Source: Eledone cirrhosa
Taxonomy: Eukaryota
Length of the DNA stretch: 64,000 bases
Direction of reading: 5' to 3'
NCBI GenBank assembly: GCA_964016885.1
Contig: OZ024742.1
Coordinates: forward strand, 191,580,001 to 191,644,000
The translations under genes were made by a program, and so were the position numbers. Positions 4,637 to 59,803 of this stretch are shown here, one piece after another. Under the pieces are notes generated by a model that saw nothing but the letters and a program-made list of their open reading frames with translations, was not told the origin of the DNA and did not search any database. The number at the start of each line of letters is the position of its first letter. The stretch's first letter is position 1.

Positions 4637-4721
4637 TATCTATCTACCTTTCTATCTATCTACCTATCTATATATCTATCTATCTATCTGTCTGTCTATC
4701 TATCTATCAATATATATATCT
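4637..4721. repeat. (TATC)n tract separating Tx1-A copies
   Basis: Directly visible; similar tracts at 2232-2270, 9453-9473 and 9929-9990. Confidence 0.9.
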
Positions 4722-6386: not shown

Positions 6387-6410
6387 GTGCCTTTTCACTT
6401 CACCACCAAC

Positions 6411-13189: not shown

Positions 13190-13229
13190 GATATTAACAA
13201 ATGGAAACTATATTTATAAAACCATATCT

Positions 13230-13292
13230 ATTTTATTATACATATTTCAAGGAAACCATGTTAAATTATGGTATGCTTTCATCAGACAAAAT
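13230..13292 (-). ncRNA. Type I hammerhead, dispersed family H1
   Basis: Minus strand: ttttgt-CTGATGA-aag..ctt-GAAA-tatgta-TA-ataaaa; same flanking sequence as the 42729 and 59493 copies. Confidence 0.78.
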
Positions 13293-13516
13293 ACAATATA
13301 TAACCAGTTTTATAAATAAATATTGACATACCCTTTCAAAATGCAACCGTTACTTTTGGAAGACATCAGGGATAGTGGATTTGTTTATCTTAGTCAGTCG
13401 TTGTGTTACGGAGTAGGAAAAAAATATCGTAAGTTTACTCCAAATACTTGTCGAGTGCTTTATATCAGTTATAAAAATATTTGCTTGTTGTATCCCAACA
13501 ATTTAAATAGAACATT

Positions 13517-13615
<99 letters not shown>

Positions 13616-22149: not shown

Positions 22150-25100
22150 CAGGCACATACTCAGAGTAGGTCCATTCACTCGGACTGTTCTTGCCTCTCT
22201 CACTCATCTTTCAACAAAATGCTTTCAACAAAATGCACTTCCTTCTCTACCCTGTTTTCCTTTTCAAATGAAATTTGAAAAAGTTAATCAGGGCATCACC
22301 GAAGAGGTAAGTTCTCGTCTTCAGCCCTTTCAAACGTGTCCACCATACTATCTCTTTCGCCATGGCCACCAGACAGATAAAACCTGCCTGCCCTTCCCGG
22401 CTAAAGAAAGAGGGCGGAGCAATGCTCACGATGGATTCAGATGATAGCCGGATCCGTCCTACACGCAACAACAGGTGTTCGACATAAACCAACAAGTCAG
22501 CAATGCTCGGACACTGGACGAGTGCGTGCAGCGTGGTTTGGTCGCCCTGCGCGCATCTCGGACATGCCCGGTTGACGGCACTTCCATTCCTGAAGCGTTT
22601 ATCCCGAACTGGCAAAGCTTCTCGGTAGCACTGCCAGGCCAGGGATTTCTGGAAGTTGTCCATAGGCCCCGGCCCGAAAGTTCTTCCGAAGAGATTGGCT
22701 AGTTGAGTTTCGTCGACGCCTAGAGTTTCCCCAAGTACGTCGTCGCTCTTCCCCTCCGCTAATCCTCTATAGAACGCCAAGATGGAGATTCCACCGATCA
22801 CATTGACCGACTGGTCGAGGGCTGTGAACGCTTGAAGACATTCCAATCTCCAAGCGCTCCATCTCGGTCTTCCCTTGACCCAGGACTGCAGCTCCGTCAA
22901 GGAGACGAGCGGGGGAAAGACGCGTCTACCAAACGGGGACCACACCTGATCACCCTCAAGGAAGAGGTGGAGATGTCGTAGCCTGAGCACGTATCTGCGC
23001 ATCATCAACCATGGCTTGCCCAGCCCTCCACATAGCGGGTGTTGACAGCAGATGGACCGCCTGACCATCGGAGCGAGTCCCTTCCACAAAAAGCGAAAGA
23101 GCAAACGCTCCAGCGCAGTCAGGCGAGGCTTAGGACAAGGCACGACGGTCAGGCTGTAGTAGATGACGGTGGCGATGTATCCATTCGCCAACGCCGCTCG
23201 ACCTTTCAGGGTTAGCTTCCTCTCTGCCCATTTCTGGGTGAGAGAAGCCACCATGCTCGTCACCTCGTCCAGTTTTTGTCCGTCTGGAGGTCCGGACCGA
23301 ACCAAACCCCTAGCGATTTTACCGGTCCGTCCGTCCAGCGCCCGACGACGCTGTTGGACGGCATGGACCTGCCTCTCCAGGTACTGAGCTGCAGGCCACA
23401 GACTTTTCCTGTTTGATCATTGCTCCTGTCACTGCTTCGTATTCTCTTAGTGTAGGGCCGATCGTCTCGATGTGTTTGGCGTTCGACACCACTACGGTGA
23501 CATCGTCCTCGTATGCTGACACGGATGTTCCGCATCCTAGTTCGCGCGGGATCGTCCTCAACGTCTCCAGTTTGTGCAGTAATGACTTGAGAGTCAATAC
23601 GTACAAGAGGCACGAGAGGGGACATCCTTGGCGGACTGAGTGCATGATGTAAACGATTCCGAAAGGTGAACGTTCACTTTCACCATAGAGCAGATGTTGC
23701 TGTGCATGGCAGCGATCCAGCCTCTGAAGACGGGCCCAAAGCCAGCCGCCCTCAGGACTGCCGCTAGGTAACGATGGTCGTCCCTATCGAAAGCTTTCGA
23801 CTGATCTAAATTGATCAAGGACACACCCGTGCCAGGTTCCCTAGCTACCCTCTCCACGATGTATCGCATGAGGTGGAGGTTGTCGCGGATGGATCTGTCG
23901 GGAATGGCGCATGCCTGTGCCTCTCCCACCAGACCCCCAACGACAAGTGCCAACCTCTTTGCTAGCACCTTGGCCAAAATCTTGAACTCTGTCTTTAGCA
24001 GAGTTCTGGGTCTGAAATTATCTGTTATCCCCCTTGTTCGTATCCTTTCTTAGCAGCGCCACCGCTCCTCGGCTCACAGAGCTGGGAATTCTCCCGTTCT
24101 GTTTCCAGTTGCAGTAGACGTCCGCCAAGAGGCATCCGAACAAGTCTGGCATCTGTACGTAAAGTTCATCGGGCAGACCATCCAAACCAGGCAATTTACC
24201 CCTTGTGCAGCCAGTAAATTGCCTCCCGTACTTCAACGACTGTTATCGGCTTTTCGCAACACTCCGCCTCAGTAGCCGAGAAAGGCAGTCCGTCGAGGTA
24301 GACACTAAAGTCCATCCCTCGATCCGGCCCCCCGCTGCCTCCGAACAGCTGAGCGAAGTGTCGCTGAAAAGCTTCACACATTTGCCCGGGATCGAGTAGC
24401 ATGTGCCCGTCGTGGTCCACCAAAGACCGGATCGTGGCTTTGTTGCCACGACGCGCCTCCGCCACTCGGACCCATTGAACGGCTTTCGTCCTCTCGTGTC
24501 TGAGAGCACGCACCCTAGCTCTGACAACGCAGCCTTCGTGCTTTGCATTGAAGAATTGGTCAAGGGCCAATTTCGACGCAATTACGTCGGTCGCGATGCC
24601 TTTGCTAAGCGCCTCGTCTAATTTTCTAACTAGTTCTCCCTCTGCTCTATTTTTCTCTATAGCTAAAGCGTTACTAAACTTAATGGACTCTATTCTAATC
24701 GCTCTTTTCAGAGCAAACCACCACTTGTTGTTGACGATGGCCCCCGTCAACACCCGCTTAACTAGTTCGCTAATACGGTCTCTGTAGGTCTTGCGCGCTG
24801 CTAAGGACGCGTTTAGCTTCCATTAGCCAGGTTCTCGTCTATGAAGCCTATCTACGTCAAGCGCACAGATCACGAATTTCTGGTCCGTGTAGCTGACTAT
24901 CTTGAATTGTGGACAGCCTATGCTAGACCTATCTATTTCCCTACAAAATACTCTATCTAGATATGATCTGGATGACCCTATGCGATTTGTCCAAGTCCAC
25001 ATTGGCACATTCGGGAAATCCAATCGGTACCTGTCAGACAGTTCCAAACGCCTGAGCAGGTTGGTGAGGCTCTTGTACCCTCCGCCCCTACCCGCTAATC

Positions 25101-25533
25101 CCACACAGTTCCAGCGTGCATCTAAGATCCGGTTCCAGTCGCCCACGAACACTAAAGAGCGGAACGTTCCAAGAAAGGTCTCCAGACGCCGGACGAAATC
25201 AGGCCGCCCTGCTCCTGTCGGGGCATAGACGGCCAGTAACCTGAAATCTTTCCCGTCTACGCTGGTCACGTCCAGCCCAACCAACTTACCTTCTGGGTCC
25301 AGGAAGATGGCCCGTATGGCAAGATCCAAAGCTCTCCGAAAAAGGCACAGCAACTCCTCCCCCTCAATCCGGGACGGCTGGGAGATGCGTACACATCGTA
25401 GCCGCCGAAGATCAGTGCGAAGGCCCGTGTTTCGGAGATTCTGGTCTAGTTGATGGCCACTACATCTATGTTTAGTGACCTGAGGTCTTTGAGCAGGTGG
25501 TCCTGCTTCCATTACGACCACAAGCCACGCCAT
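22150..25533 (-). pseudogene. Tx1-B ORF2 (APE-RT-ZnF), frameshifted
   Basis: Collinear ORF pieces 24823-25533, 24196-24753, 24018-24236, 23594-23977, 23319-23645 and 22247-23305. Confidence 0.88.
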
Positions 25534-25569
25534 TTATGAAATGGAGTGGAAAAGATGGGAAAGACCACT

Positions 25570-27330
25570 TACATACTTCTCGTAGAGAAATGATGGTTTC
25601 TCCATCCTTTTCACTGCTTGTGGCCTCCTCCGGAAGGATGTCCATATAAATCCTCCTGGAGAATGCTTGTCAGAAGTCTCCAATGTCTTTGGGGAATTTT
25701 TGTTTTAGTGTCGTGTACGTTTTCTGTGTGATGCGAGAGATTTGTATGTGTGGAGGTGGTGTGAACTTTTGGGGTGTTGTGTAGTCTTTTTCTGTGATGC
25801 TGGTGTTGTGTTGGATGTAGTGTAATAGTTGGTTGTTGTTCAAATTTAATGCTGTGTAATGTGTATTGTTTTGGTTGTTTTGTTTTGATTGCGTTTGTTG
25901 TGGGTTTGTTTCTGTTTCGCTTTTTGGTGACTTTTGTGGTGTTGGGGTTAATGGTGGTGATGGTGTTGGTGTTTGTGGTGATGGGGTTGGTGATGCTGGT
26001 GTGGATGGTGGCATAGCTGTCCTAACTTTTTTGTTCGATAGTTTATTTGTTTCCTTCTGTATTTTGTTTTTGGAGGGGGACGGAAGAGGATTTTTTTCCT
26101 TTTTGGCTTCTTTTTCTTTTTTTCTTTTTTTCTGATACAGCTTGCCACTCCTCGTCGTCACAAACTGTCTCCAGTTGCGATAGGTCGGGGAGTGGAACAT
26201 CCTTCACAGGCGTTGGTTTTGGTTGTGGCGTGGTGGATGGTGTAGGCGCTGGTGCTAGTTCTGGCGCGTTGGGTGGTGGTGGTGTTGGTCTTGCTACTGT
26301 TGCTGGAGTTGTTGATGCTACAGTTGCTTCTGTTGTTGCCGCTACAGTTCTTGCTGCCATTTCTGATGCTGGTGGTGTTGATGGTTGAGTCACTGGGGTG
26401 GGTAAGAGAGGTGGCTTCAACTTTTTAGCCTGAGGACAGAAAGACCTTACGTGGGTTCCTTCACCACAAAGGACACACCTAGGCCTTTAACCCTCGACGA
26501 TTACGGTGAGGTAGCTGCCGTCATTGAGGTCTATTACCTCTGGGATCTCCTCAATGCTTTTTGGTCCGCTTGGATCAGGAGCTCCATCCCTGATCCGGAC
26601 CAGTCGCCTGTTTTTCATTTGCTATTTCGATTATCTTGGTGTTGGCCTCGTTGCCGGCGACGACGGCAACCATTAGCCAGGGAATTTCGATGGCCGGTGG
26701 AACGTGGGTCACCCTGATCTTTACGAGTCTCTGGCCAAAATAGCTTGGGACGAGTGTGAAGTCGTCGTTTCTTAATGGGGCCATGGAGTGCTCTCTCGCC
26801 TCCTGTGGTGTTCCAAGCAACACGTCCACGGTTCCATATTTCTGCCCACGTCTGATGTGAGTTTTTTTTGCCCACACATGTCCCGAAGCTTTTTGGATTT
26901 GGGACTCGGATGCCCGTTCTACACGGCGCGATTTTATGTTAATCGTCCGATAAGACACGGTGCATAGGCGCCGATCCTCCATTTTATTTGTTGGGGGGGG
27001 GGCTGACCCTGTACCCGTCTTTCTTTACCATTCTTTTGGCTTCATCTAGTTCCTCCTGAGTTACCTGGATTGTTTCGCATTTTTCAACTGCTTTGATAAA
27101 TGACACGATGTTGTTATTCTCATTGTTGTTGTTGCTGTTGTTGTTATTGTTACTTCTGTTATTGTTATTTTTAGTTTCATTTGTGGTGGTGGTGGTGGCG
27201 TCAGTGGTGTTCGGTGTGGAAGAGTCCATTCTGGGTGAATCCATTTCGATGTCACGATATAATTTATTTTTTTCTTTTGTTTCTGTTGTCGCTGTGGTGG
27301 TGGTAGGGGTGGCGGCTTAAACACCTGCAG
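25570..27330 (-). pseudogene. Tx1-B ORF1 (gag-like), frameshifted
   Basis: Pieces 26984-27244, 26575-26982, 26043-26420 and 25670-26200; CCHC at ~26430-26480. Confidence 0.75.
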
Positions 27331-27740: not shown

Positions 27741-27929
27741 TAATTGTTTCTACTTTAGGCACAAGGCCAGCAATTACCCAGTACATTACTGGTACTTTAT
27801 CTTATCGACCCCGTAAGGATGAAAGGCAAAGTTAACCTCAGCGGGATTTGAACTCAAACCGTAAAGGGACGTAACTATGCTAGAAAGCATGGCGTCCAAC
27901 CCTCTACCGATACTGCCAATTCACCGCCC
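27741..27929 (-). mobile_element. Complete ~190-bp tRNA-derived SINE with (ATT)n tail
   Basis: Minus strand: ggcggtgaat-TGGCAGTATCGG (A box)...GAGTTCAAATCC (B box)...ggggtcgataagataaagtaccag (Deu/Nin-like core)...ggccttgtgcctaaagtagaaacaattatt. Confidence 0.85.
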
Positions 27930-27944
27930 TTATAATAATAATAA

Positions 27945-30115
27945 TACATATATCATTGCTGAAAATACGGACAGTGTCAACAAGCACATTCAACTCCTTC
28001 TCACTTTTCCCGAAGAGCTTAAGATCGTCCATGAAGAGGAGGTGATTGATGGTAAGCTCTCCCTTTCCCAACTTGTATCCTGCTGTCACTTTTCGCAGTA
28101 TAATGGTCAGGGGCATCAGAGCAAGGACAAACAACGGAGGGGACAGACTATCTCCCTGGAAGATACCTCTCTTGATCTTCACGCCTCCCAAGGATTCTCC
28201 AGCTGATGTTAACTCTGTTTTCGAGGACTTCATACTTTTGCTCAACAACTGTCTGATGTTATCTGCCACCTTGAAGATCTCCAGGCTTTTGGTGATCCAA
28301 GAATGAGGCACCATGTCAAATGCCTTTTTGTAGTCTATCCATCCCATGGCAAGACCAGTGTGTCTCCTCTTGCAATTCCTCATTATCATCTTATCAATAA
28401 GTAACTGGTCCTTTGTACCACGGGACTTCTTTCGGCATCCTTACTGTTCGTCCGGTAACAAGTTGTCTGTGTGGAGGTGATGGTAGATTTCCTCAGACAC
28501 AATGTTTGTCAACAGTTTCCACATTACGGACAGACATGTGATATGTCTAAAGTTGGTAACATCATTACCTTTGATTCGGTCTTTCATTACCAGAACTGTT
28601 GTACCTGTTGTCAACCACTCTGGTACCTCACCTGACATGAAGCAGTCATTGAACATGGTTGTCAGTTTCGGGTGAAGGGATGTTTTATTTTGAATCCAAT
28701 ACCCCTGCACACCATCTGGGCCTGGTGATTTCCAGTTGGTTAGTTTTTTGTCCTACCCCTTAAGAGTTTCAACTGTGATACTCAAATCAGTTTGTTGGTG
28801 TGCCTGTTCACTAATCTCATTTTGTACTGTCTCAATCCACACTGCCTGGTGATTATGTCTAACATCCTGCACCCATATTCCTCTCCAGAATGTCTTAGTT
28901 TGTTCCGCCTCAGGAATCAAGTCGTTGCCTCTTTCTTTCCCTTCAAGCTGCCCAAACAACATATTCTGGTTACTGTCAAACATGCGGTTCTGTCTATACT
29001 GACACTGACTCTGCTCTCCTATCACCTAATGTTTGCACTCTTTGCTACAATGCGTTGCTTCAGTTCCTCTATGATAATATTTAGCTTTTTCCTCCTAGTT
29101 TTGTACTTTATTTCCAGTCTATTTTTAGTGTCTATGTTTTTTAGTGTCCCATTCAGTAGGGACTCAAGCTTTCCAATGTAATTTCACATTTCCCTGTATT
29201 GACCATTCAGTCGTTTCTTCCACCAAGGTTCTGATCTTTCTTGTTTGTTGTTTCCACTCGCTCTTATGCCAAGCAATTTCCTCACCGCATTTGCTGTTGC
29301 TTTGAGGATATTGTTGCACTGGTGAAGGCTCCTCGCCTCAAGTTATGGGATGACTTTGTTTACCTTAGCTGTTGATTCTTTTAACTTCCTGTCTACAAAT
29401 CTTAGGTTCATAGCTTTCCCACTATCATTGTTCATTTCATCTACCACTAACTTTAGGATATCAACCAATCTTGTCCTAGCCCGTCAGCATTCATCTCCTC
29501 AATGACCGTATCTTTGTTCAGGTATTATTTATTTCAACATTCAGATCATTGTCTGCTTCGGATGGTTCCTCCGTTCTCTCAACCTCATCACCTTCATTTC
29601 CCACTGGCTCGTTTTCCTGGCATACTCCACTCTCCATTTCCAACCTAATCTCTCTGCTCAGTTCCTCCAGTTCCAGCTCGCCAATCCACCCATTAGTTCT
29701 TATTACCCGAGCCTGCCCGGCCAATTTTTGTTCATCTAATTTAAATAGACCAATCTCGTTCCAGATGTTATGCATCCGTTTCCTATAGCCTTTTTCCTTG
29801 GGGTTACTCTTCAGGTAACATTACATAACAGTTCGATTCAATTCTTTCGTCCAGTTGGTTTTGGTCCCTTTCCTTCTTCTTCTTCCTCCGACACCAGCAG
29901 TATTTGATTGACAGCCAGGTCCCTGCTGCTGAGCCAGGGAGCACCTGCTGGGTGAGAGTTTGTCACATGACATTCCAGTCATTCGAACCGTTATTCGAAC
30001 TGTTTAGGTTCAACATTTAAACACTCTTATCGAGGATTGGTGAATGTATGGTTACATAACCACCGGTGATTTCATCACCCCCGATGATTTTAGGGTGGCA
30101 CTATCACGCTGTAGA
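27945..30115 (-). mobile_element. R4/Dong-clade RLE retrotransposon, 5' portion (N-terminus to RT motif 5), broken
   Basis: [26 protein letters not shown] and [11 protein letters not shown]; WLTTGTTVLVMK; N-terminal NWTKELNRTVM..CY. Confidence 0.85.
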
Positions 30116-30392
30116 CGAACATAAATAAACAAACAAACAAATACGTAAAAAAAAAACCAAATAAGCATAAGTTTCATTATAATATAATGTTTGAATGTCT
30201 GACTTAGTTGTTTTGCTTGTCTGTCTGTCTGTTTGTTTTTCTTTTCCTTTTTCTTTTCTTTACGTTTTTCGTTGCTGCTGTGCTGTTTTGATTTTGATTT
30301 TTTATTTTATTATTTTTTGACCGGGTCATCAAATCAGTCTAGTTATGTCTTTTGATGCCTTCCTCATTTAGTCGGAATACTACGATGCCTGT

Positions 30393-30535
30393 CTTAGCAG
30401 GAGGCAGTGGGAGAGAATAGCGGCGGTAGCGATAATGAGGCAGTGGTGGTGGTGGTGATGTGCTAGTAGTACTTAGCAGGAGGTAGTGGGAAAGAATAGC
30501 GGCGGTAGCGATAATGAGGCAGTGGTGGAGGTGAT
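30393..30535 (+). repeat. ~62-bp direct repeat, period 79
   Basis: cttagcaggagg(c/t)agtggga(g/a)agaatagcggcggtagcgataatgaggcagtggtgg occurs twice. Confidence 0.8.
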
Positions 30536-30921
30536 ATGATCGTAGTACTATAGTGATGGTGTTGTAGTTGAAGTAGAAATAGAAGTTGAGATAACTTGAC
30601 TAGAGTTTCTGGCGTGGAAGTGGTGATGGTGGCGGTGGCGGTGTTGGTGGTGAAATTATTTGCCTGTCTGTCCACTTAGCCATTTTTCTCTTTTTCGACT
30701 ATAACATTTCTGATCCAAAATTAAATATTAAATATTGGAGCCCTATGCCGTAATGTGATACGTTGTCGCTTGCTGAGGGTCAAAACTGTAATCTTATATT
30801 ACATTTGTAATAAGAATTATTCTATCACAGTTGTTTTAAATAAGTAAAAATCAAAAACTTACGGGAGCCATTCTATAACGATATATATCCCCCATGTGCG
30901 TTTTCTTCCCTATTCAGCCTT

Positions 30922-31795
30922 CATGAAAAATCCCTTCATAGTACCTTCTTTGAGAAATCTGAATTCAGAGATCCACAGACATGGAACTGGTTGAAAAGAG
31001 GAGACCTTAAAAAGGCTATAGAAGGAATGCTAATGGCTGCGCAAGAGCAGACCCTCAAAACGAAGTGGCTGAAACACCATATTTACAAGGAGGAGGCTAG
31101 CCCACTGTGCAGGATCTGTGGAGAGAGAGAGAGAGAGAGAGAGGAGACTGTGGCTCACATTGTATCCGAGTGTAAACACCTACCCCAGACTCACTATAAA
31201 GGCTGGAGACATGATGTGATGGGCAGAGTGATCCACTGGCACCTATGAAAAGTAAATAATTTACCACATTCTGAGAAGTGGTATGAGCATAAGCCAGAGT
31301 CGGTGATAGAAAAGGATCAGGTGAAGGTGCTGTGGAATTTTAGGATACAGACGGACAAGAAACTGGAACACAATAGGCCTGACCTCGTGGTTTTGGGCAA
31401 GGAAAAAAGATTGTGTCTGATTGTGGACGTGGCCTGCCCATTCGACACGAGAGTGCAAGAGAAGGAGATGGAGGAAATTAACCGATACCAGGACTTAAAG
31501 TGGGAGTTAAAAAGATTTGGAACTGACATGAAGTCAAAGTGGTCCCGATTGTCATAGGTGCACTAGGTACTATCTCAAAAAGTTTCCAGGGATGGTTAAA
31601 GAAAATTGGCTCCGCCCCGCTTTTTGGAACACTTCAAAAGGCATGCTTGCTGGTAACAGCAAGACCCTTCCGATACGTCCTGAGTATCTGAGGCTGCAGG
31701 TAGTGGCTTGATATTCATTTCAACAAACTTTCCAGTTAACTAACATCAATGACTGAGACTCAGAGAACAATAATAATAATAATAATAATAATAAT
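30922..31795 (+). mobile_element. R4/Dong 3' portion (CCHC plus restriction-like endonuclease) with (TAA)n tail
   Basis: AAQEQTL, CRICG..ETVAHIVSEC, RHD, NRPDLVV..IVDVACPFD and IVIGALG; (TAA)n at 31768-31795. Confidence 0.88.
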
Positions 31796-31796
31796 G

Positions 31797-32622
31797 ATTT
31801 CTTTATTGGCCACAAGGGCTGACATCAAGAAAAACATCACAGACGGCACAGGACGGTACAGGACGGTACGATGTGGGTTTTGTGCGTGTAAAGATTTGTA
31901 TCATTTATATAAGAAAAGAAAAAGAAAATGACATAGAAACATATATATATATAAACAATAAAAATGAAAATTGAAACAATGAAAAATTCCCCAATAGTGC
32001 GGAAACCTCCGAGGATTACTCGTGGCGAAAACGACACAAAAGACCACGGCCACCCTGACCACCAGGACAAGCGCCCTCTCTCAATTTTTCCATTTCTCAA
32101 ACTACAGGCGTATATTCAGAGCGGTCCGGTTCACTCGGACCATTCTCGCTACATTCACCCACCTTTCAACAAACTTGCTAGAAGGCAGCACTTGCCTCTC
32201 CACCCTGATTTTCCTCTTCAAGTGAAACTTGAAAAAGTTAATCAGGGATTCGCCGAAGAGGAACATATTTGTATTTAACCCTTTCAACCTTGCCCACCAC
32301 ACAATCTCTTTCGCCATGGACACCAGGCAGATGAAAACCGCCTGCCCTTCCTCCACGAAGGAAGACGACGAGACTATCTGCACAATGGACTCAGTCGATA
32401 ACCAGATCAGTCCCACACGCGACAGCAACTGTTCGACATAGCTCCACAAGTCAGCAATGCTCGGGAACTGAACAAGTGCGTCCACGACGGTTTCGTCGCT
32501 CTGAGCGCATCTCGGACAGGCTCGGCTGACGGCACTTCCGTGCCTGTAGAGCTTATCTCGAACCGGCAACGCTCCCAGGCAGCACTACCAGGCCAGGCCA
32601 GGGATTTTTGGAAGTTATTCAT
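31797..32622 (-). mobile_element. Tx1 family B 3' fragment, tail-to-tail with Dong at a shared (TAA)n
   Basis: ORF 32102-32569 matches the C-terminus of 22247-23305; terminus gcccttgtggccaataaagaaatc(att)n. Confidence 0.9.
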
Positions 32623-32624
32623 AG

Positions 32625-34430
32625 ACATGGAAAACAACACTCCTTTTGAATAGTGAAAAAAAAAATCACTGGAAGCTGGAGAAGTTAATATTAATTGTGG
32701 AATTTTTCAGGGTGACTCTTTATAACCGCTTTTATTCTGCATCGCACTTATACCATTAAGTAAAATGCTCAATGAAACAAAACATTGATATAAAGTCTAT
32801 GACAAAACCATTAATCACTTGTTCTACATGGATGACCTGAAACGATTTGCAAAAAATGATGAACAGGTGCAAGGGCTATTATCCACTGTGGAGCAGTTCA
32901 GTGATGACATTAAAATGAAGTTTGGACTTGATAAACGCGCCAAAGCAACGTTCACCAGAGGAAAGCTGCTGAAAAGTTCAGACATTAATCTTGATCAAGA
33001 CGAAACTTACAAATATCTAGGTGTTTGTAAAGGAGACGGAATCAAGCACTCGACAATGTGGGAAAGGATAAGGAGGGAATCTTACCGCAGAGTAAGAGCA
33101 ATCTTAAGAACGGAATTGAATGCAAGGAATAGCATCGATGCCATAAACACGCTTGCCATACCAGTAGTAACCTACAGTTACAATGTCATCAACTGGTCAA
33201 GCACAGAGATCCGTAGGCTCGATACAAAAATTCGAAAATTCTGAACCATGCACAGAATGCATCACTCTAAGGCAGATACAGATAGAATATATCTCCCTAG
33301 GAAAGTAGGAGGACGTGGTTAATCCAGTTAGATATTGCGTTGAAAACTGCAATAATTGGATTATCTACATATCTAAGGGAATCACATGATTGGATGATCA
33401 AACTCGTTTTGAAACACGAAAGCATCAAAAGATCATACTCCATTACAAAAGATGCACAAAGATACAGTAATGGACTACAAATTTCAGAAGTTCCATTTAC
33501 AACTGAAATGAAAAACACAGAAAAAGCAAAGCAGGTTAAAATAACTGCAAAGAAAGAACTGCTACAGAAACTGGCTAAGAAATGGCAAGAAAAGCCTCTG
33601 TATGGAAAATACCCAGAAAGAGCTAACAATCAGTGGTTAGCATCCTCTGGACTGAAATCGGAGACTGAAGGACTGATTATATCAGCACAAGATCAGTGTC
33701 TGCCAACAAAAATTTACCAAGGCAACATAATAAAAAATGGATGCAACCCATTATGCCGTGTATGTAAAAAAGAACCAGAGACGTGCAGTCCTATAGCTCC
33801 AACCGAATACCCAAACAGGCATGACAGAGCTGCACAATACATACATTGGATAATGTGTAAGCATTTTGACCTGCCCCATCAAAAGAATTGGTGGGAGCAT
33901 CAACCACCTCCCATACTTGAAAAATATCACATCTCAATCTTGTGAAACTTTAGCATTCAAACAGACCGAAAAATAGATGCAAATAGACCTGATATAATAC
34001 TGAAGGACTTTAAAAAGAGGGTATGCCTGCTAATTTATATGTCCGTTCCAATAGATAAGAATGTATCTATAAAAACATTTGAAAAATTGAGCAAGTATAA
34101 GGACCTGGAGATAAAAATTGGAAAACATGTGGAAATTGAGAATTAAAACAATACCAGTGATTGTAGGCGCTCTAGGGGTCTAATGATTACTTATCGCATA
34201 TCCCAGGAAACCCGCGTATAGGAGAAATACAAAAGATAGTACTAATGGGAACTGCCCACATACTCAGGAAGATTCTGTCAATATAAATACATCACAAGTC
34301 TAAACACCTAAAGATGCATGTGTGTGTATGTATGTTCTTTCTTCAACATGGCGGACCTTGTTGGCTCTTGAGGTCACTGGTTGTGACTTGGTGATGACTC
34401 GTATGAACATAAAGCAAGATAAATGCAACT

Positions 34431-41179: not shown

Positions 41180-41379
41180 TTTATTATAAATACTTCAGAG
41201 GTACTGAGCTATTTCAACAGTACGTCCTCATCAGATAAAATAAGTTGAAGCTTGACATACCTTGACTATGTTGATGGTTATAATTCAGTCAGTCAAGGTA
41301 TGTCAAGCATCAACTTATTTTATCTGATGAGAACGTACAGTTGAAATAGCTCAATACCTATGAAATATGTATAATAAAA
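41180..41379. repeat. ~88-bp inverted repeat (23-bp spacer) of back-to-back hammerhead motifs
   Basis: 41180-41267 is the reverse complement of 41291-41378; plus-strand HHR ttttat-CTGATGA..GAAA-tatgta-TA-ataaaa at 41318-41379. Confidence 0.82.
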
Positions 41380-42609: not shown

Positions 42610-42728
42610 TATATATATATATATATATATATGTAGAAGTGATATTTAATTTGTTGACTTTCCAGGATAACTTGGACCGTTAAGGCATACCATCGTCAGT
42701 CATGTCAAATATTTATAAAGCATTTTGT

Positions 42729-42788
42729 ATTTTATCTGATGATAGCGTACCAACACTTTTGGTACTCTTGAAATATATATAATAGAAT
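42729..42788 (+). ncRNA. Type I hammerhead, dispersed family H1
   Basis: attttat-CTGATGA-tagcgtacca..tggtactctt-GAAA-tatata-TA-atagaat. Confidence 0.78.
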
Positions 42789-42832
42789 AAATATGGTTTT
42801 ATAAATATAGTTTCCATTTATATAATATCAAT

Positions 42833-43563
<731 letters not shown>

Positions 43564-43716
43564 ATAAATGCTCTGAAATAGCGATATATATGTGAATATA
43601 GACATAGAATATTCGAAAATATTCTGTATGTTTATAATAAACATTTTGAAGACCTAATCGCTATAGAATAGAATACGTCACGTATTACAATTAGATTCTC
43701 GATAAAAGCAAGGGAA

Positions 43717-43759
43717 GTAATCTACGCGTTTCATTCTTGTTAGAAATCATCAGGACTAC
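43717..43759 (-). ncRNA. Minimal type I hammerhead (also at 44027, 44337, 44647, 44957 on the minus strand)
   Basis: Reverse complement of the 45363-45405 motif. Confidence 0.85.
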
Positions 43760-45362
43760 ATATCCAGTGCTTTTATCGAGAATGACACAGCTAGAGACTT
43801 ATAGAATACTTAGCTGTGTACAGGAACTGGTTTGAAAGAGCGGTTGCCGGTCCGGCAGAAATTAGAAATTGGAATAAATGCTCTGAAATAGCGATATATA
43901 TGTGAATATAGACATAGAATATTCGAAAATATTCTGTATGTTTATAATAAACATTTTGAAGACCTAATCGCTATAGAATAGAATACGTCACGTATTACAA
44001 TTAGATTCTCGATAAAAGCAAGGGAAGTAATCTACGCGTTTCATTCTTGTTAGAAATCATCAGGACTACATATCCAGTGCTTTTATCGAGAATGACACAG
44101 CTAGAGACTTATAGAATACTTAGCTGTGTACAGGAACTGGTTTGAAAGAGCGGTTGCCGGTCCGGCAGAAATTAGAAATTGGAATAAATGCTCTGAAATA
44201 GCGATATATATGTGAATATAGACATAGAATATTCGAAAATATTCTGTATGTTTATAATAAACATTTTGAAGACCTAATCGCTATAGAATAGAATACGTCA
44301 CGTATTACAATTAGATTCTCGATAAAAGCAAGGGAAGTAATCTACGCGTTTCATTCTTGTTAGAAATCATCAGGACTACATATCCAGTGCTTTTATCGAG
44401 AATGACACAGCTAGAGACTTATAGAATACTTAGCTGTGTACAGGAACTGGTTTGAAAGAGCGGTTGCCGGTCCGGCAGAAATTAGAAATTGGAATAAATG
44501 CTCTGAAATAGCGATATATATGTGAATATAGACATAGAATATTCGAAAATATTCTGTATGTTTATAATAAACATTTTGAAGACCTAATCGCTATAGAATA
44601 GAATACGTCACGTATTACAATTAGATTCTCGATAAAAGCAAGGGAAGTAATCTACGCGTTTCATTCTTGTTAGAAATCATCAGGACTACATATCCAGTGC
44701 TTTTATCGAGAATGACACAGCTAGAGACTTATAGAATACTTAGCTGTGTACAGGAACTGGTTTGAAAGAGCGGTTGCCGGTCCGGCAGAAATTAGAAATT
44801 GGAATAAATGCTCTGAAATAGCGATATATATGTGAATATAGACATAGAATATTCGAAAATATTCTGTATGTTTATAATAAACATTTTGAAGACCTAATCG
44901 CTATAGAATAGAATACGTCACGTATTACAATTAGATTCTCGATAAAAGCAAGGGAAGTAATCTACGCGTTTCATTCTTGTTAGAAATCATCAGGACTACA
45001 TATCCAGTGCTTTTATCGAGAATGACACAGCTAGAGACTTATAGAATACTTAGCTGTGTACAGGAACTGGTTTGAAAGAGCGGTTGCCGGTCCGGCAGAA
45101 ATTAGAAATTGGAATAAATGCTCTGAAATAGCGATATATATGTGAATATAGACAGAATATTCGAAAATATTCTGTATGTTTATAATAAACATTTTTCGAA
45201 TATTCTATGTCTATATTCACATATATATCGCTATTTCAGAGCATTTATTCCAATTTCTAATTTCTGCCGGACCGGCAACCGCTCTTTCAAACCAGTTCCT
45301 GTACACAGCTAAGTATTCTATAAGTCTCTAGCTGTGTCATTCTCGATAAAAGCACTGGATAT

Positions 45363-45405
45363 GTAGTCCTGATGATTTCTAACAAGAATGAAACGCGTAG
45401 ATTAC
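45363..45405 (+). ncRNA. Minimal type I hammerhead (also at 45673, 45983, 46293, 46603, 46913)
   Basis: gtagtc-CTGATGA-t-ttct-aaca-agaa-t-GAAA-cgcg-TA-gattac; palindromic ACGCGT stem III; predicted cleavage after 45399. Confidence 0.85.
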
Positions 45406-47136
45406 TTCCCTTGCTTTTATCGAGAATCTAATTGTAATACGTGACGTATTCTATTCTATAGCGATTAGGTCTTCAAAATGTTTATTATAAACATACAGAA
45501 TATTTTCGAATATTCTATGTCTATATTCACATATATATCGCTATTTCAGAGCATTTATTCCAATTTCTAATTTCTGCCGGACCGGCAACCGCTCTTTCAA
45601 ACCAGTTCCTGTACACAGCTAAGTATTATATAAGTCTCTAGCTGTGTCATTCTCGATAAAAGCACTGGATATGTAGTCCTGATGATTTCTAACAAGAATG
45701 AAACGCGTAGATTACTTCCCTTGCTTTTATCGAGAATCTAATTGTAATACGTGACGTATTCTATTCTATAGCGATTAGGTCTTCAAAATGTTTATTATAA
45801 ACATACAGAATATTTTCGAATATTCTATGTCTATATTCACATATATATCGCTATTTCAGAGCATTTATTCCAATTTCTAATTTCTGCCGGACCGGCAACC
45901 GCTCTTTCAAACCAGTTCCTGTACACAGCTAAGTATTCTATAAGTCTCTAGCTGTGTCATTCTCGATAAAAGCACTGGATATGTAGTCCTGATGATTTCT
46001 AACAAGAATGAAACGCGTAGATTACTTCCCTTGCTTTTATCGAGAATCTAATTGTAATACGTGACGTATTCTATTCTATAGCGATTAGGTCTTCAAAATG
46101 TTTATTATAAACATACAGAATATTTTCGAATATTCTATGTCTATATTCACATATATATCGCTATTTCAGAGCATTTATTCCAATTTCTAATTTCTGCCGG
46201 ACCGGCAACCGCTCTTTCAAACCAGTTCCTGTACACAGCTAAGTATTCTATAAGTCTCTAGCTGTGTCATTCTCGATAAAAGCACTGGATATGTAGTCCT
46301 GATGATTTCTAACAAGAATGAAACGCGTAGATTACTTCCCTTGCTTTTATCGAGAATCTAATTGTAATACGTGACGTATTCTATTCTATAGCGATTAGGT
46401 CTTCAAAATGTTTATTATAAACATACAGAATATTTTCGAATATTCTATGTCTATATTCACATATATATCGCTATTTCAGAGCATTTATTCCAATTTCTAA
46501 TTTCTGCCGGACCGGCAACCGCTCTTTCAAACCAGTTCCTGTACACAGCTAAGTATTCTATAAGTCTCTAGCTGTGTCATTCTCGATAAAAGCACTGGAT
46601 ATGTAGTCCTGATGATTTCTAACAAGAATGAAACGCGTAGATTACTTCCCTTGCTTTTATCGAGAATCTAATTGTAATACGTGACGTATTCTATTCTATA
46701 GCGATTAGGTCTTCAAAATGTTTATTATAAACATACAGAATATTTTCGAATATTCTATGTCTATATTCACATATATATCGCTATTTCAGAGCATTTATTC
46801 CAATTTCTAATTTCTGCCGGACCGGCAACCGCTCTTTCAAACCAGTTCCTGTACACAGCTAAGTATTCTATAAGTCTCTAGCTGTGTCATTCTCGATAAA
46901 AGCACTGGATATGTAGTCCTGATGATTTCTAACAAGAATGAAACGCGTAGATTACTTTCCTTGCTTTTATCGAGAATCTAATTGTAATACGTGACGTATT
47001 CTATTCTATAGCGATTAGGTCTTCAAAATGTTTATTATAAACATACAGAATATTTTCGAATATTCTATGTCTATATTCATATATATATATATATAAAGTT
47101 ATGTATGTATATATATACATATATATATATATATAT

Positions 47137-50100
47137 TTATAGTTATAGGAATAACCAAAGAGTGCTTAGATATACATTGTTTTATTAGCTAACAGTGTTT
47201 CATCCATACCCCATGGCAGGAATCAGCAGAGCCTATAAACAAGAGTATATCAGTAGTTGCATGCTCCATCGAGCTGTGTTACCAGAACAAGGTTAAATGA
47301 CCAGCAGGGGTCCCGTGGCCAGCGCTATATGGAAAATAACAGAATACATGATGCACATAATGTCATAAAATATCTTTAAAAGTTTAAAAATTACACCAAA
47401 AATGTATCACTTAAATGGTGCAGTAGATGATAAAGAGGTTGGGAGAGGGTAGCAACGGATGAGTGAGGGTATTACTCAGCATGATCACAAACAATAATAA
47501 AATAATAAAAAAGTATTCAAAATTACAAAAATACAATGATAAGAAAAATGATAAATATAAAAATACGAAACAATAAAGGAACAAAAAGCCTGGAAACCAC
47601 CCAAAATATAAGACAAATCAAAGCATGTATGATAGTCCATATGAGGGATGGTGTACTCCAATTATATCGCTTTGTAACAGGTTGATTCTCCGTATCATAT
47701 ACGCAGCCTACGAACCACATTGATATGTTCCAGTTCCGAACGTTAAGTGAGATAACACTATTTTTCTAAAACCTATACACAGGGGATTTATCACCATAGG
47801 CGGTCTGGGATATACACCTAAAATCTAAAATACAAAATAAAAGACAGTACGACGAGTTAAAGAAATGTATAGTACTTAAACCGCCGGCACAGATGTGAGG
47901 AAATTGAAAACACGCCAGGTCCGCAGAAACTGTCATTCCTCAAAATCCTCACGTTCGGTCGCTCAATCCAACGTGCCGTGTGAAATTCACTGTATGTCCA
48001 AGTTGGCGTTCAACCAATGTATCGTACCGCATATAACTGTACCACAGTAAATACAAATCGTGATGGCTATACCGTTACATATAGAGAAAAAGTGTATATA
48101 GGAAACTACGCTTCCAGAATCACATATGGCAGAATGAGCAGATATTGTTATAATAATAGGCGGGTTTATTAGAGTGAGTGCACATTTCTGTAGAATATAT
48201 AGGTATATATAGAAGAGAGAACTCACAGCCGAATCTGTCAATGACAGCTATGTTTTTTTATATTTCCGCCTCGTGGTTTTCGTTTAGATTATTGACCACG
48301 GAGGTTGCAATCCATTCACAGTCGGGTGTGACCCCTCCTGGGTTGGCGGGATTTCAATATCCAGTGCTGCACTTTGCCTTGAGTGTGGTTCTACAATTCA
48401 TCAAAGCTGGATCACAATTCATATTCAACTAACTCCAACTTTCAAAGATTAGTCTCTCGCTAGTAACACACAACGGTAGTCCGAATATAAACACAGGAAG
48501 TCGTAGTGTGTCTATGAAAGGTATGGGAGGCAATTCGCGTCATAAAGGGCGGATTCATTAGATATCCAACGGGATGCTAGCGGCGAGTCTTTTGTTTGAT
48601 TCGAAATCCTCAGCGATCAACCACCCCTTCCCCCTGGGGCTTGGTCGATTCAGCGGCGCCTAGCCAACACAATTTGCTACCGTAGTTCATTATACTAGGT
48701 TAGATCTATTACAGACTTTAAGGTTAATGTTAACTAGAACCCGGGTGCCCAATTCACCCGCTTTATAGCTGCGGCGAGGTTTTCTGGGCTTTCGACAGAC
48801 TATTGTGATGTGCTATCAGTTAGCGCACAATTGATGTGTTTATAAACCATACTAACATGGTTAGTGTGGGTATGTGCCTATATAGTGTCAAACTTTGCTA
48901 GGTATAGTGAAAAGCCTTAAGTAGGTTCTACCCCAGGTTTCTTGGCTTGTGGTCCAATAAGATGAACTAGGGAAGAGAGGAAGAAAAGTAAGAGAGGGGT
49001 GAGAAGAGATATTAGAGTAGTCTATATACACCTGAAGGGCAGTTATCGTCACAAAGGAACCAGGATGCAGTGCGGCGTGGTTTTACGTAGGCCAGACAAG
49101 ACGGAAATATGCAGGTCGTACATCATTAGCTAATTGGTCTAAAATAATAGGAGCTAAGATTTATGTGCGGGCAAGAAGAGAATATCTCCGACTTCCTATT
49201 TAGCAGGTTCAGTTTGGAGTGTATTATGGCGTGTGATTCAGAGAGACAAAGGTCACAGGTCTTGATAGGGGGTCTGTACTGCGATGATTTAGTGATGATT
49301 CTCCAATCAAGCGTGTATTGAATATCAGTGTTCTTCAGGACGGATATGTAACTAGCTAGGGATGTAGTATTCTTAAGTCTATCATGACTAAATGTATGGC
49401 GATGGGAGTTGTATCTAGTCTTAAAGGGGGTCGTACTAGGGGAAGAGTTAGCCCTGGGCATAGACAACCCATCTTCCGTGTTAGAGAGAACCTCGGGTGG
49501 TAACCTTACCTGGATGGGTTCGCAGGCTTCCCTGTCTTTCCTATTGCACTTCAGTTTTCTAGCTTTTATCCTAGTGTTAGTATTATTGCCATACCGATGA
49601 GGCGTGTTAAACCCTTTGGGTTGGTCAGAGCCGCCTACAGTACCCGTGTGTAGTTCCTATTTTTGTGTCCGCTTCTATTAGGCAAAGCCATATTGTGTGT
49701 GATTACATTATATTGTCCGGCCCTGGTGGTTTGGGCGTTGTTATGTATGTAGTATATTTTTTCTCTAAAACTGGACTTTGCTAGTGCTTTATTATAGTAC
49801 CTTGCATTAGACCTAAATGCATGTTCATTATGTGATAGTCTGATAATCCTGTTAGATACCGCTTTAATTATGGCATTTAGGACGGGTCTATGGTGGATGG
49901 AATTTGCATTTACGTATGTTAGTGTTTAATCTGGCTTGTGATAGGGTGAGAAGTATTTATTTCCCAAGTCCAGGATTACGTCTAGAAAGTTAACCGTTTT
50001 ATTATTTATGTCTATCGTTATGCTAAGGTTAAAGCTTTTGAAGAATTTATGTAGTTCATTTCTCGTCCTTTCTATATTATGTTTTTTATATTCAATAGTG

Positions 50101-50454
50101 AAGAGGGCGTCGTCACGGTATAGCCCACCTTTGAAATGCGGGAATGTGTAATGCAGTTCATGGAGGAGGTAAAGTCCAACCAAGTCAGTGACCTGCGCCG
50201 AATCGATGGACCCCATTGTGACATCAAAGTTATTCGGCGTGTTCTTCCGGGTCCAACGTTAGTCTTCGAAGAGGATGATAGTTCTCCGGGCAGCAAGGAT
50301 GATGTCAATTTGGGATCTAGTCAGGTCACTATTTTGCATAGCTAATATAAGGGCCTTATTTAGAAGGATGGGAGAGATCGAGGTATAGTATGAGTTGATA
50401 TCGAATTGGATGAACTTCAGGGACTTATGTTTACTAATGCTTGAGAACAATTTA
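47137..50454 (-). mobile_element. Naiad-type Penelope-like element, left (inverted) arm with RT
   Basis: FIQFDINSYY, MGSIDSAQVTDLVGLYLL, GLYRDDALF and VNFLDV; C-terminal half of GIY-YIG (49126-49433); long 3' region; mutated HHR (CTGCTGA) at ~47181-47238. Confidence 0.9.
49473..50454 (-). pseudogene. PLE reverse transcriptase core and thumb/linker, 5'-truncated and disrupted
   Basis: ORF pieces 50259-50454 and 49926-50216 carry the RT motifs; downstream YVNANSIHHRPVL..RIIRLS..YYNKAL. Confidence 0.85.
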
Positions 50455-51312
50455 ATGGGTTGTCTATGCCCAGGGCCAACTCTTCCCCTAGTACGAAAAA
50501 TAGGAAAAATAGACGAAGATCTAATTCCTACTTTAATCCACCTTACAACTCGGAGGTAAAAACCAATATACCAAAGGCATTCTTCTCGATCTAGGAAACC
50601 CCCCCCCCCGGTAGTAAATACCATAGTATCATTAATAAAAACATAATTAAGCTATCAATCTCCACTACTCCAAATCTAGCTCGTCACCTAGCCATAACGA
50701 ACAACAACAAAATTACAAAGGGTTTCGATACCATTGCAGCTGCGTCACACCCGCAACCAATAGATGGCCTGATGCGGCGTCACCCAACAATACTATCCAC
50801 ACATCTGATATATATACGGTTGCCAAATCTGGAACGCACGGAAAACCAAACATCTCCTGTGCCTCAGACTCACATACACCGCAAATGTAACTGCAGACGA
50901 AAGGCGGAGTGCCCCCTAAAGGAACAATGCCTTATAAACAATATTGTCTACGCATGTGATGTTACAACTCTGACCTCCTCCAAAATATATATAAGGGTCT
51001 ACATCGACCCCCTTTAAGACTAGATACAACTCCCATCGCTATACATTTAGTCATGATAGACTTAAGAATACTACATCCCTAGCTAGTTACATATCCGTCC
51101 TGAAGAACACTGATATTCAATACACGCTTGATTGGAGAATCATCACTAAATCATCGCAGTACAGACCCCCTATCAAGACCTGTGACCTTTGTCTCTCTGA
51201 ATCACACGCCATAATACACTCCAAACTGAACCTGCTAAATAGGAAGTCGGAGATATTCTCTTCTTGCCCGCACATAAATCTTAGCTCCTATTATTTTAGA
51301 CCAATTAGCTAA
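50455..51312 (+). pseudogene. PLE linker-ZnF-GIY-YIG endonuclease, frameshifted
   Basis: Motifs as listed for the right arm; frameshift near 50990; stop at 51310-51312. Confidence 0.85.
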
Positions 51313-53310
51313 TGATGTACGACCTGCATATTTCCGTCTTGTCTGGCCTACGTAAAACCACGCCGCACTGCATCCTGGTTCCTTTGTGACGATAACTGCC
51401 CTTCAGGTGTATATAGACTACTCTAATATCTCTTCTCACCCCTCTCTTACTTTTCTTCCTCTCTTCCCTAGTTCATCTTATTGGACCACAAGCCAAGAAA
51501 CCTGGGGTAGAACCTACTTAAGGCTTTTCACTATACCTAGTACAGTTTGACCCTCTATAGACACATACCCACACTAGCCATATTAGTATGGTTTATAAAC
51601 ACACCCATTGTGCGCTAACTGATAGCACAGCACAATAGTCTGTCGAAAGCCCAGAAAACCCCGCCGCAACTATAAAGCGGGTGAATTGGGCACCCGGGTT
51701 CTAGTTAACCTTAACCCTAAAGTGTGTAATAAATCTAACCTAGTATAGTGAAGTATGGTAGCAAATCGTGTGGCCCAGGCGCCGCTGAATCGACAAAGCC
51801 CCAGGGGGAAGGGGTGGTTGATCGCTGAGGGCTTCGAATCAAACAAAAGACTCGCCGCTAGCATCCCGTTGGATATCTAATGAATCCTCCCTTGATGACG
51901 CGAATTGCCTCCCATACCTTTCATAGGTACACTACGACTTCCTGTGTTTATATTCGGACTACCGTTATGTGTTACTAGCGAGAGACTAATCTTTGAAAGT
52001 TGGAGTTAGTTGAGTGTGAATTGTGATCCAGATTTGATGAATTATAGAACCACACTCAAGGCAAAGTGCAGCACTGGATATTGAACTCCCGCCAACCCAG
52101 GAGGGGTCACACCCGACTGTGAATGGATTACAACCCCCGGAGTCAATAATCTAAACGAAAACCACGTGGCGGAAATATAAATAACATAGCTGTCATTGAC
52201 AGATTTGGCTGTGAGTTCTCTCTTCTATATATATCTATATATTCTACAGAAATTTGCACTCACTCTAATAAACCCGCCTATTATTATAACAATATCTGCT
52301 CATTCTGCCATATGTGATTCTGGAAGCGTAGTTTCATATATACACTTTTTCTCTATATGTAACGGTATAGCCATCACGATTTGTATTTACTGTGGTACAG
52401 TTATATGCGGTACGATACATTGGTTGAACGCCAACTTGGACATACAGTGAATTTCACCTGGCACGTTGGATTGAGTGACCGAACGTGAGGATTTTGGGGA
52501 ATGACAGTTTCTGCGGACCTGGCGTGTTTTCAATCTCCTCACATCTGTGCCGGCTGTATATGTACTATACATTTCTTTAACTCGTCGTACTTTCTTTTAT
52601 TTTTTATTTTAGATTTTAGGTGTATATCCCAGACCGCCTATGGTGATAAATCCCCTGGGTATAGATTTTTGAAAAATAGTGTTATCTCACTTAACGTTCG
52701 GAATTGGAACATAACAATGTGGTTCGTAGGGAGCGTATATGATACGGAGAATCAACCTGTTACAAAGCAATATAATTGGAGTACACCATCCCTCATATGG
52801 ACTATCATACATGTAAGGCTGTACCACTGCTAACCAACTATTCTTTTCACAGACTCATGCATGCAAACTCTCTTAATCTTCCTGCACACTCTGTTTTTGC
52901 ACTGCTTGTGCTTTGGTGTATCTATGCTTTGCTTTGTCTTATATTTTGGGTGGTTTCCGGGCTTTTTGTTCCTTTATTGTTTTGTATTTTTATATTTATC
53001 ATTTTTCTTATCCCTGTATTTTTGCAATTTTGATATATTTTTATTATTTTCTTATTGTTTCTGATCATGCTGAGTAATACCCTCACTCATCCCTTGCTAC
53101 CCTCTCCCAACCTCTTTATCATCTACTGCACCATTTAAGTGATACATTTTTAGTGCAATTTTAAAATGTTTAAAGACATTTTGTGACATTATGTGCATAA
53201 TGTATTCTGTCTTTTTCCATATAGCGCTGGCGCTGGGACGCCCTGCTGGTCCTTTAACCTTGTTCTGGTAACACAGCTCGATGGAGCATGCAACTACTGA
53301 TATACTCTTC

Positions 53311-53369
53311 TTTATAGGCTCTGATGATTCCTGCCATGGGGTACTGATGAAACACTGTTAGCTAATAAC
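53311..53369 (+). ncRNA. Type I hammerhead at the Naiad 3' end
   Basis: ataggct-CTGATGA-ttcctgccatggggtactgat-GAAA-cactg-TT-agctaat. Confidence 0.75.
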
Positions 53370-54088
53370 ACAATGTATTTCTAAGCACTCTTTGGTTATT
53401 CCTATAACTATAACGGCTCTGTAGTATGCTAGTTATCCTACTTTGAGCTAAAACCACACTGTCAAACCAAGGGCAATATGTCTGGGCATATAAATATATT
53501 TGTCAACGAAATATATATATATATATTTATATATGTATACATATATAAATATATATATATATGTATATATATACATACTACTGTACGTCTGTATACTTAT
53601 ATGTATGTACGTATATATACTTATATTTAAGTAACAGCCGTACTAAGAGTGAAAAATGAAATTTCGTTTCATTTTTTCCGTTTATCGTTTTCGCTGAGCC
53701 CGGCTGATTAACTCACTCGATATGCAAATTAGGCTGCTCAGCCGTTAATATGCATAAGGAAAGTATATACTTTCAGACGTTCAATCATCTGGCAGGAAGG
53801 TATACGGTGCTGATGATAGCTAATAAACTTGAAACTATTACATCGTTCCTTTGTCAGTGTTGAACAAAAGGGCAACGATGGTTGCCGAACACTGTACGGC
53901 TTAATTCGGGATGTTTGTTTACAAACACACCGATCATTATAATAAATGTTCGGTAAATCCATACGTACATATATATATATGTGTGCATGTATGTATATAT
54001 ATATACATACTACTGTACGTCTGTATACATATATGTATGTACGTATACATACTTATATATATATATTTATATATATATACATATGTAA

Positions 54089-59010: not shown

Positions 59011-59271
59011 TTTCTCTGTAAATTATTTCTCTTAGGAACTGGAATCATATGATTCCAGTTCCTCCGATAAATAACAACACAACCAGGAGCTGGACATATC
59101 GATGTATTGACGGAGTAAAACACACTTCAACAACATGTGTACCTGTCTTTCCCACACCAATTCGGACTGCCTGAAGAGGTCACAGCCAATGATGTCTGTC
59201 ACCGAAATATATATAGCAGTATATCTATAATTTATAATATACGAAGCCAAATTTTACATATTTGACTTAAT

Positions 59272-59310
<39 letters not shown>

Positions 59311-59492
59311 TCAGTGACATTATATATATACATATATATATATATCTATATATATATAATCAAAGAGTTATTTAATTTGTTGATTATTCAACAAATTTAA
59401 TTATAACAGATTCGAAGCACGCTACAACTTTCTTCTGGAGTATAATAGCAATGATATTAATAAATGGAAACTATCTTTATAAAACCATATTT

Positions 59493-59553
59493 ATTTTATC
59501 ATATATATATTTCAAGCGTACCAAAATGTTGGTACGCACTCATCAGATAAAAT
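59493..59553 (-). ncRNA. Family H1 hammerhead with a mutated cleavage triplet
   Basis: ttttat-CTGATGA-gtgcgtacca..tggtacgctt-GAAA-tatatata-TG-ataaaa; flanks match 13190-13330 and 42700-42830. Confidence 0.7.
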
Positions 59554-59702
59554 ACAAAAGTTGTTTTATAAATAGTGTCATATCCAAAAAACAAGAACTT
59601 ATCTAGTTAAGTTCTGTGTGAATACTATTCAAACAGCAATTAAAACGATAAGTTCTTGTTTTTTGGATATGTCACCATATATTAAAGAACTTTTGTATTT
59701 TG

Positions 59703-59803
<101 letters not shown>

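Follow-up and report, generated by a model that had tools for sequence, protein, structure and literature searches.

Organisation of the locus

The window, i.e. the whole 64-kb stretch of DNA that was analysed, contains in the assembly sequence an insertion of 3531 bp in total, made up of eleven hammerhead-bearing 310-bp units whose orientation is reversed mid-way. Its two arms are 310-bp tandem arrays of 5.3 and 6.1 copies in opposite orientation (Table 1); the unit is numbered here from position 45193, which is phase 1. An array with such an inversion is far beyond chance, and the insertion is recent.

Table 1. Coordinates, strands and properties of the array, its target tracts and other hammerhead elements of the window
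Feature	Position	Strand	Remarks
Left arm	43558-45195	minus (ribozyme-sense)	5.3 units; phase 283 to phase 60-62
Right arm	45193-47088	plus (ribozyme-sense)	6.1 units; phase 1 to phase 36
Strand-switch microhomology TTT	45193-45195		left-arm phase 283-285, right-arm phase 1-3
Palindrome loop, 25 nt	45168-45192		includes 7-bp hairpin 45176-45192
Plus hammerhead cores (n=6)	45369, 45679, 45989, 46299, 46609, 46919	plus	
Minus hammerhead cores (n=5)	44993, 44683, 44373, 44063, 43753	minus	
Type I hammerhead, first plus copy	45357-45409	plus	five further copies at +310 steps
Type I hammerhead, first minus copy	44953-45005	minus	four further copies at -310 steps
Left-end-only extension, 26 nt, unit phases 37-62	43558-43583	minus	candidate PLE tail
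Left (TA)n target tract, ~720 bp, interrupted	42835-43557		
Right (TA)n target tract, ~50 bp	47089-47136		
Decayed element, probably Hydra-type PLE, head-to-head	47137-53510	RT fragments minus, EN both strands	arms 93-96% alike
Related hammerhead mini-elements	~42630-42835 and 13190-13520		two outward-facing ends in (TA)n
Older head-to-head minimal hammerhead pair	41180-41378		88-nt arms 92% alike, loop 23 nt
Hammerhead mini-element with 76-nt inverted head	59360-59703		palindrome 59549-59701, loop ~1 nt

An earlier note on this DNA had described a strand flip at a 3-nt microhomology, and this is borne out by the assembly, in which the left arm extends to 45195 and the right one starts at 45193, with TTT common to both. 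The TTT alone is weak evidence, because 6.7% of the antisense/sense phase combinations possible for the 310-bp unit have a microhomology of at least 3 nt. The palindrome, previously put at about 3.2 kb, was computed at 3.25 kb (about 43558-46804), and hammerhead cores were located in the numbers given before, five on the minus and six on the plus strand. The loop is short, as had been stated, but its exact size is 25 nt and not about 26 nt. A hairpin of 10-11 bp at about 45152-45175 lies beside the 7-bp hairpin of the loop.

The left arm matches the unit apart from a 2-nt deletion at 45154/45155, missing from the earlier description, and the right arm carries three private substitutions, at 45628, 46958 and 47080, the last at the target junction. 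The right arm exceeds the left by 256 nt. The two flanks of the insertion do not mirror each other, and besides these four private changes the arms have different lengths and end phases.

The 3' ends of both arms face outward into (TA)n, as the earlier note had it, the right one falling at the internal (AT)4 tract of the unit. The offset between them in unit phase, put there at about 40 nt, is 26 nt, or 35 nt if the right end is placed before the mismatch at 47080, which is at the low edge of the 30-40-nt range of PLE tails. Neither end stops a short way 3' of a hammerhead, as had been thought; both are roughly half a unit beyond the cleavage site, at 139 and 165 nt. Any target-site duplication is unreadable in a (TA)n target. 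Setting of the cDNA ends by ribozyme cleavage was considered and rejected: the cut is at phase 207, the 5' ends of the arms are at 283 and 1, and the 3' ends at 36 and 62.

The repeat unit and its hammerhead

The unit has about 34% GC, and its length and composition are within the 150-450 bp and less than 50% GC used for retrozymes. Its hammerhead comprises a stem I with an internal loop, the CUGAUGA core, a U.U pair at the base of stem II, GAAA, and a stem III of 1 bp capped by a palindromic CGCG; these parts were assigned from the general layout of the hammerhead core. The predicted cut in the first plus copy follows GUA at 45399 (phase 207). Core and stem I are present in all 11 copies, and a search of Rfam at gathering scores gave no match in the whole 64-kb window, the array hammerheads included. 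Inside the array there is no stop-free frame of at least 120 aa; the left end of the array is entered by two frames of this length from the (TA)n tract.

The monomer fold of the unit has a z-score of -4.4, and none of 100 shuffled sequences was equally stable. When the unit is folded as a circle, stem I is paired with a probability of 0.85-1.0, and stem II is absent from the ensemble; the stem III palindrome is computed to pair with itself at -9.5 kcal/mol. From the traits of its type I hammerhead and the stable monomer fold, the unit is therefore, by sequence, a non-LTR retrozyme, with self-cleavage and RNA circles as putative properties.

In the available text, animal non-LTR retrozymes resemble the array in having a unit of 150-450 bp with less than 50% GC, a single type I hammerhead in each unit, no ORF and a stable predicted fold (PMC7229834; 10.64898/2026.07.22.740005), but they are described only as head-to-tail arrays, whereas the present one is head-to-head with two outward 3' ends; that text gives no analysis of inversions, tails or junctions. 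The 1-bp stem III with a palindromic tetraloop of the axolotl ribozyme HHR_Amex1 and the U.U at the stem II base of HHR_Amex2 are like those of the unit, and the axolotl ribozymes, among which these two traits are described, cleave well only as dimers (PMC7229834). The basal pair of stem II, usually G-C, is replaced by U opposite U in the retrozyme (45375-45390), in the neighbouring PLE (53327-53350) and in a mini-element (42742-42772).

Neighbouring elements of the window

On its right the array adjoins a decayed element of which both ends are in (TA)n, with a hammerhead near each outer end; on the right it extends about 97 nt further than on the left. Its broken frames retain a C-terminal EN, a CxCx5C linker, and CxxC and CxH motifs, which are traits of the Hydra clade; the description of this clade includes this motif set, the hammerhead and the (TA)n target (Craig 2021, PMC8557442). 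By motif match to that description, the element is probably a Hydra-type PLE. Searches of three of its fragments against Pfam gave nothing above the cut-off, and an Atlas search with its RT fragment returned leads below 0.9 only. It also contains a 42-nt inverted copy (49431-49472 versus 50455-50496) and an extra piece of 110 nt (52814-52923).

Each of the mini-elements at ~42630-42835 and 13190-13520 is bounded on one side by a hammerhead-proximal end and on the other by an inverted piece, the latter resembling the far end of the copy at 59546 (about 84% over 37 nt). In that copy, about 90 nt separate the two end types of the mini-elements. In the minimal hammerhead pair at 41180-41378, the right arm continues to (TA)n at about 41527. 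The short arm of the palindrome at 59549-59701 ends just upstream of the ribozyme core and joins (AT)n; the palindrome looks like a snap-back product, and self-priming therefore seems to occur in this genome. Since older, diverged neighbours of the array share its head-to-head architecture, this architecture is real biology here. The (TA)n tract is an insertion hotspot, in which a mini-element and the PLE both end.

Comparison of the unit with the end of the neighbouring PLE and with four mini-elements of the window revealed no significant similarity (18-170 of 200 shuffles scored as high), and no pLTR homology to an autonomous partner was found among the same one PLE and four mini-elements.

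Other features of the window include a hammerhead-like core on the plus strand at 16225 (CTGACGA...GAAAC), unrelated to the array; a loopless, near-perfect palindrome of 52 nt at 59023-59074; broken LINE-type frames for RT and endonuclease at 2500-9200 and 22200-27000; and fragments near 27900-33900 that we take to be RTE-like.

Occurrence of the unit in public sequencing runs

Twenty public runs from 16 studies contain at least half of 35 words sampled from 45050-45520, and none of the runs so listed is recorded as RNA. Four of 24 listed runs (X1, X5, X10 and X21) were compared with one unit. In X1, 642 contigs match the unit, 356 of them at 99% or more, with depths into the thousands; the unit family is young and very abundant in this run. 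Of the loose ends in X1, six were listed and 34 lay beyond the listing. At one, phase 36, which is the end of the right arm, 10 contigs pass from the unit into (AT)n; at the others listed, a single contig exits at phase 67, the consensus of a six-contig group of indel variants exits at about phase 69, and the remaining three are single contigs on the 5' side. The right-arm end is thus a recurrent end of the family, and the listed ends at phase 36 (10 contigs) and at about 67-69 (few contigs) are spaced by 31-33 nt.

By depth, X1 carries variants of about 21-25% at phases 184 and 192 and of about 5% at phase 19. All 11 hammerhead copies of the array share one allele at the first two, and phase 19 is identical in every array copy; uniform alleles at the three phases are as expected of one template, to which they point weakly. 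The runs X5 and X10 each yielded one closed, near-perfect contig of 340 nt (depth 10-34), which fits a tandem array or a circle equally. In the raw Hi-C run X21, no reads on the unit were found among 12.8 million read; its label and study are those of another run that contains the unit. The unit occurs under 17 organism labels among the listed runs, for which carry-over from a sample rich in the unit seems likelier than horizontal spread.

The strand-switch junction is absent among the unit-matching contigs listed, which contain only the 310-nt wrap-around joint with no strand change. An exact 29-nt pattern had no match in metagenome contigs. About 5.5 of the 35 words are expected to be junction-specific. 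Because the best of the listed runs has 27 of the 35 words and X5, which has the plain unit only, has 26, no listed run visibly contains the junction. A junction missing from contigs neither confirms nor refutes it, because rare links between very deep nodes are lost from contigs.

Origin of the inverted array

The earlier note had called head-to-head inversions a hallmark of PLE insertions, and published descriptions agree. PLEs carry at their head an inverted, 5'-truncated copy and at one end a tail of 30-40 bp, and they target (TA)n (Craig 2021, PMC8557442). The array resembles PLE insertions in its inverted head, its (TA)n target and its junction palindrome (PMC8557442, PMC3846280, PMC11167929), and its one-sided extension is a candidate for the tail; it is unlike them in that the passenger is non-coding, both arms are multimers of 5-6 units and the template was presumably circular. 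PAc, a PLE protein predicted to be a dimer, cleaves both strands and extends them, and its two internal RT start sites on the RNA flank the tail (Frangieh 2024, PMC11167929). We give a probability of about 0.55 to the reading that a PLE RT/GIY-YIG enzyme made the insertion in trans, priming at both target ends, with the 3' ends of the cDNAs joined at TTT.

The steps, all of which we infer beyond the description of the sequence, would be as follows. The retrozyme unit would be transcribed, cleaved by dimeric hammerheads and circularised, steps that have been shown for coral, mussel and axolotl retrozymes. A PLE enzyme would nick the (TA)n tract on either strand, and cDNA would start on each target end at one of two internal RNA sites, phase 36 and about phase 62-67, creating the tail. 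Both cDNAs would then roll around the RNA circle until their 3' ends anneal at TTT/AAA, and mutual extension would fill in the palindrome. In a refinement, both RTs would run on one RNA circle; the left one would stall near phase 283, where the hairpins lie, and its partner would continue for most of another lap, to 28 nt behind it. This refinement, which would explain the short loop and the 256-nt difference between the arms together, carries about half of the probability of the reading as a whole.

Priming at both ends would account for the end offset and the candidate tail; in PAc the tail is bounded by two start sites (PMC11167929). The right-arm changes at 45628 and 46958 are unmirrored on the left, and the left-arm deletion is unmirrored on the right. 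The adjacent Hydra-type PLE and the mini-elements at ~42630-42835 and 13190-13520 likewise have two outward ends in (TA)n. In a simple model, two independent cDNAs leave a loop of at most 30 nt 19% of the time. For one end to fall 0-30 nt behind the other within one lap, P is 0.009-0.028 for independent arms of exponential length, a figure computed post hoc for one locus. The arms are probably coupled, because their lengths together with the loop are improbable for two independent cDNAs (P ~0.01-0.03), and two coupled models would fit: two RTs on one circle, or a jump of the right RT to its own displaced cDNA. Of the twin-primed integration of two multimeric cDNAs proposed in the earlier note, the PLE-type head-to-head insertion and priming at both ends are supported, whereas a preference for twin priming over self-priming is not secure.

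Several observations count against this reading. The second end site is represented by few contigs and lies 5-9 nt from the left-arm end, and some of the tips at phase 36 may instead reflect a lengthened internal (AT)4 tract. The right end sits on an AT tract, while no homology between RNA and target is found at PLE RT starts (Frangieh 2024, PMC11167929). The unit has no significant similarity to the neighbouring PLE end or the mini-elements, and the junction is in no contig listed. The same-circle geometry is a post hoc fit to one locus.

Comparison with other systems gives partial likenesses. L1 twin priming, as described in PMC11702581, also joins two target-primed cDNAs at microhomology, but the second L1 RT starts beside the end of the first, whereas here the starts are about 30 nt and the stops about 28 nt apart; unlike L1 5' inversions, the locus has no poly(A) and no readable TSD. 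Classical L1 twin priming was rejected for the locus, as the left outer phase differs from the right inner phase. Non-autonomous Chlamys PLEs such as MRC1 are non-coding multicopy insertions moved by PLEs, as the array would be, and microsatellite targets are reported for the Chlamys group, comparable to the (TA)n here; at the 3' end they resemble their autonomous partners (Craig 2021, PMC8557442), whereas no such similarity of the unit to the neighbouring PLE was found.

Alternative explanations

Self-priming, the copying of a single target-primed cDNA on itself into a long hairpin after fold-back or a template switch, is the published reading of PLE junction palindromes (Arkhipova 2013, PMC3846280), and for the present locus we consider it a serious but rather unlikely explanation. 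The strand switch sits among hairpins, and hammerhead palindromes with short loops recur in the window (23 nt at 41180-41378; ~1 nt at 59549-59701). The simpler form, in which the left cDNA snaps back across the 25-nt loop, would require further events to explain a right arm that has an additional 256 nt and no counterpart of the left deletion. In the best form, the right-primed RT would jump to its own displaced cDNA one lap back, in a register with a loop of 280 nt, and a short second cDNA would give the 26-nt tail. In this register 45195-43584 mirrors 45475-47088 end to end, with the tail alone left over; priming at both ends is nevertheless still required. Self-priming also predicts that RT errors are mirrored, and the changes at 45628 and 46958 are not, although they may be mutations that followed the insertion.

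An assembly artefact, in which two ordinary retrozyme loci were fused through a fold-back or chimeric read in a repeat of very high copy number, is improbable. It would agree with a junction unseen among the listed runs and unit contigs, with the abundance of the unit in X1, and with the near-identity of the arms and the long (TA)n on their outer sides. A simple fold-back read is ruled out by the unmirrored flanks, and the differences of the arms in length, end phase and four private changes, together with the tail offset at the outer ends, also argue against an artefact. Neighbours with arms diverged by 4-15% share the architecture and cannot be read artefacts, and absence of the junction from contigs is expected either way, as rare links between very deep nodes are dropped.

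A later rearrangement, whether inversion or duplication of the array by replication template switching or the landing of a second array alongside, is very improbable: the (TA)n tract is a hotspot with mini-element and PLE ends in it, and local amplification is favoured for tandem arrays (Li 2026, 10.64898/2026.07.22.740005), but the junction contains neither (TA)n nor a remnant of a split array, and both outer ends meet target DNA near family end sites, an outcome that duplicating one arm would not produce.

Read-through RNA and DNA structure

In a computed fold of plus-strand read-through RNA (44860-45530), the transcript forms a hairpin with the hammerhead core fully paired with the left arm; release of monomers and formation of dsRNA therefore compete. 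The earlier proposal that read-through yields monomers plus dsRNA was not upheld, since each right-arm hammerhead pairs fully with the left arm and the ribozymes would be blocked. Read-through would instead give a hairpin RNA of 1.6 kb, and monomers would require transcription initiating inside an arm. The suggested cruciform DNA is doubtful over a 25-nt spacer, given that breaks at inverted Alus in yeast are about 80% lower with a spacer of 9 bp (PMC8053094); formation of a single-strand hairpin at the locus is possible. The insertion would be the product of a selfish element.

Implications for the movement of animal retrozymes

No report of an inverted retrozyme array was found in the searched literature, outside which most subscription papers lie. 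The available parts of 10.1101/2022.05.23.493040 and PMC6431247 contain nothing on inverted arrays, and the main text of Li 2026 (10.64898/2026.07.22.740005), as far as available, mentions no tail, junction or palindrome. Retrozymes and inverted PLE heads are each already known, and their apparent combination in an inverted retrozyme array is new to the literature searched.

PLEs have been called a strong candidate for the enzyme that moves animal retrozymes (Cervera and de la Pena 2020, PMC7229834), and in the available text of Li, Clavereau and Pollet 2026 (10.64898/2026.07.22.740005) the two are linked by co-occurrence and pLTR homology, without an integration signature. The present locus displays a PLE integration signature on a retrozyme and hints that animal ribozyme circles are reverse-transcribed into the genome by PLE enzymes acting on the two sides of a cut. 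As one locus, with its junction known from the assembly, it is a lead and not proof. Because a circular template records the start phase, the stop phase and the number of laps on both arms, a set of such loci can separate self-priming from priming on two strands.

More speculatively, and with odds against it, inverted retrozyme arrays may be frozen records of a PLE dimer driving two RTs round one RNA circle until one catches up with the other. If this is true, the loop size would measure the footprint of the RT and the end offset would measure the two start sites; the arrays would then provide a genome-wide test of head-to-head insertion by PLEs and would prove directly that animal ribozyme circles are moved by these elements.
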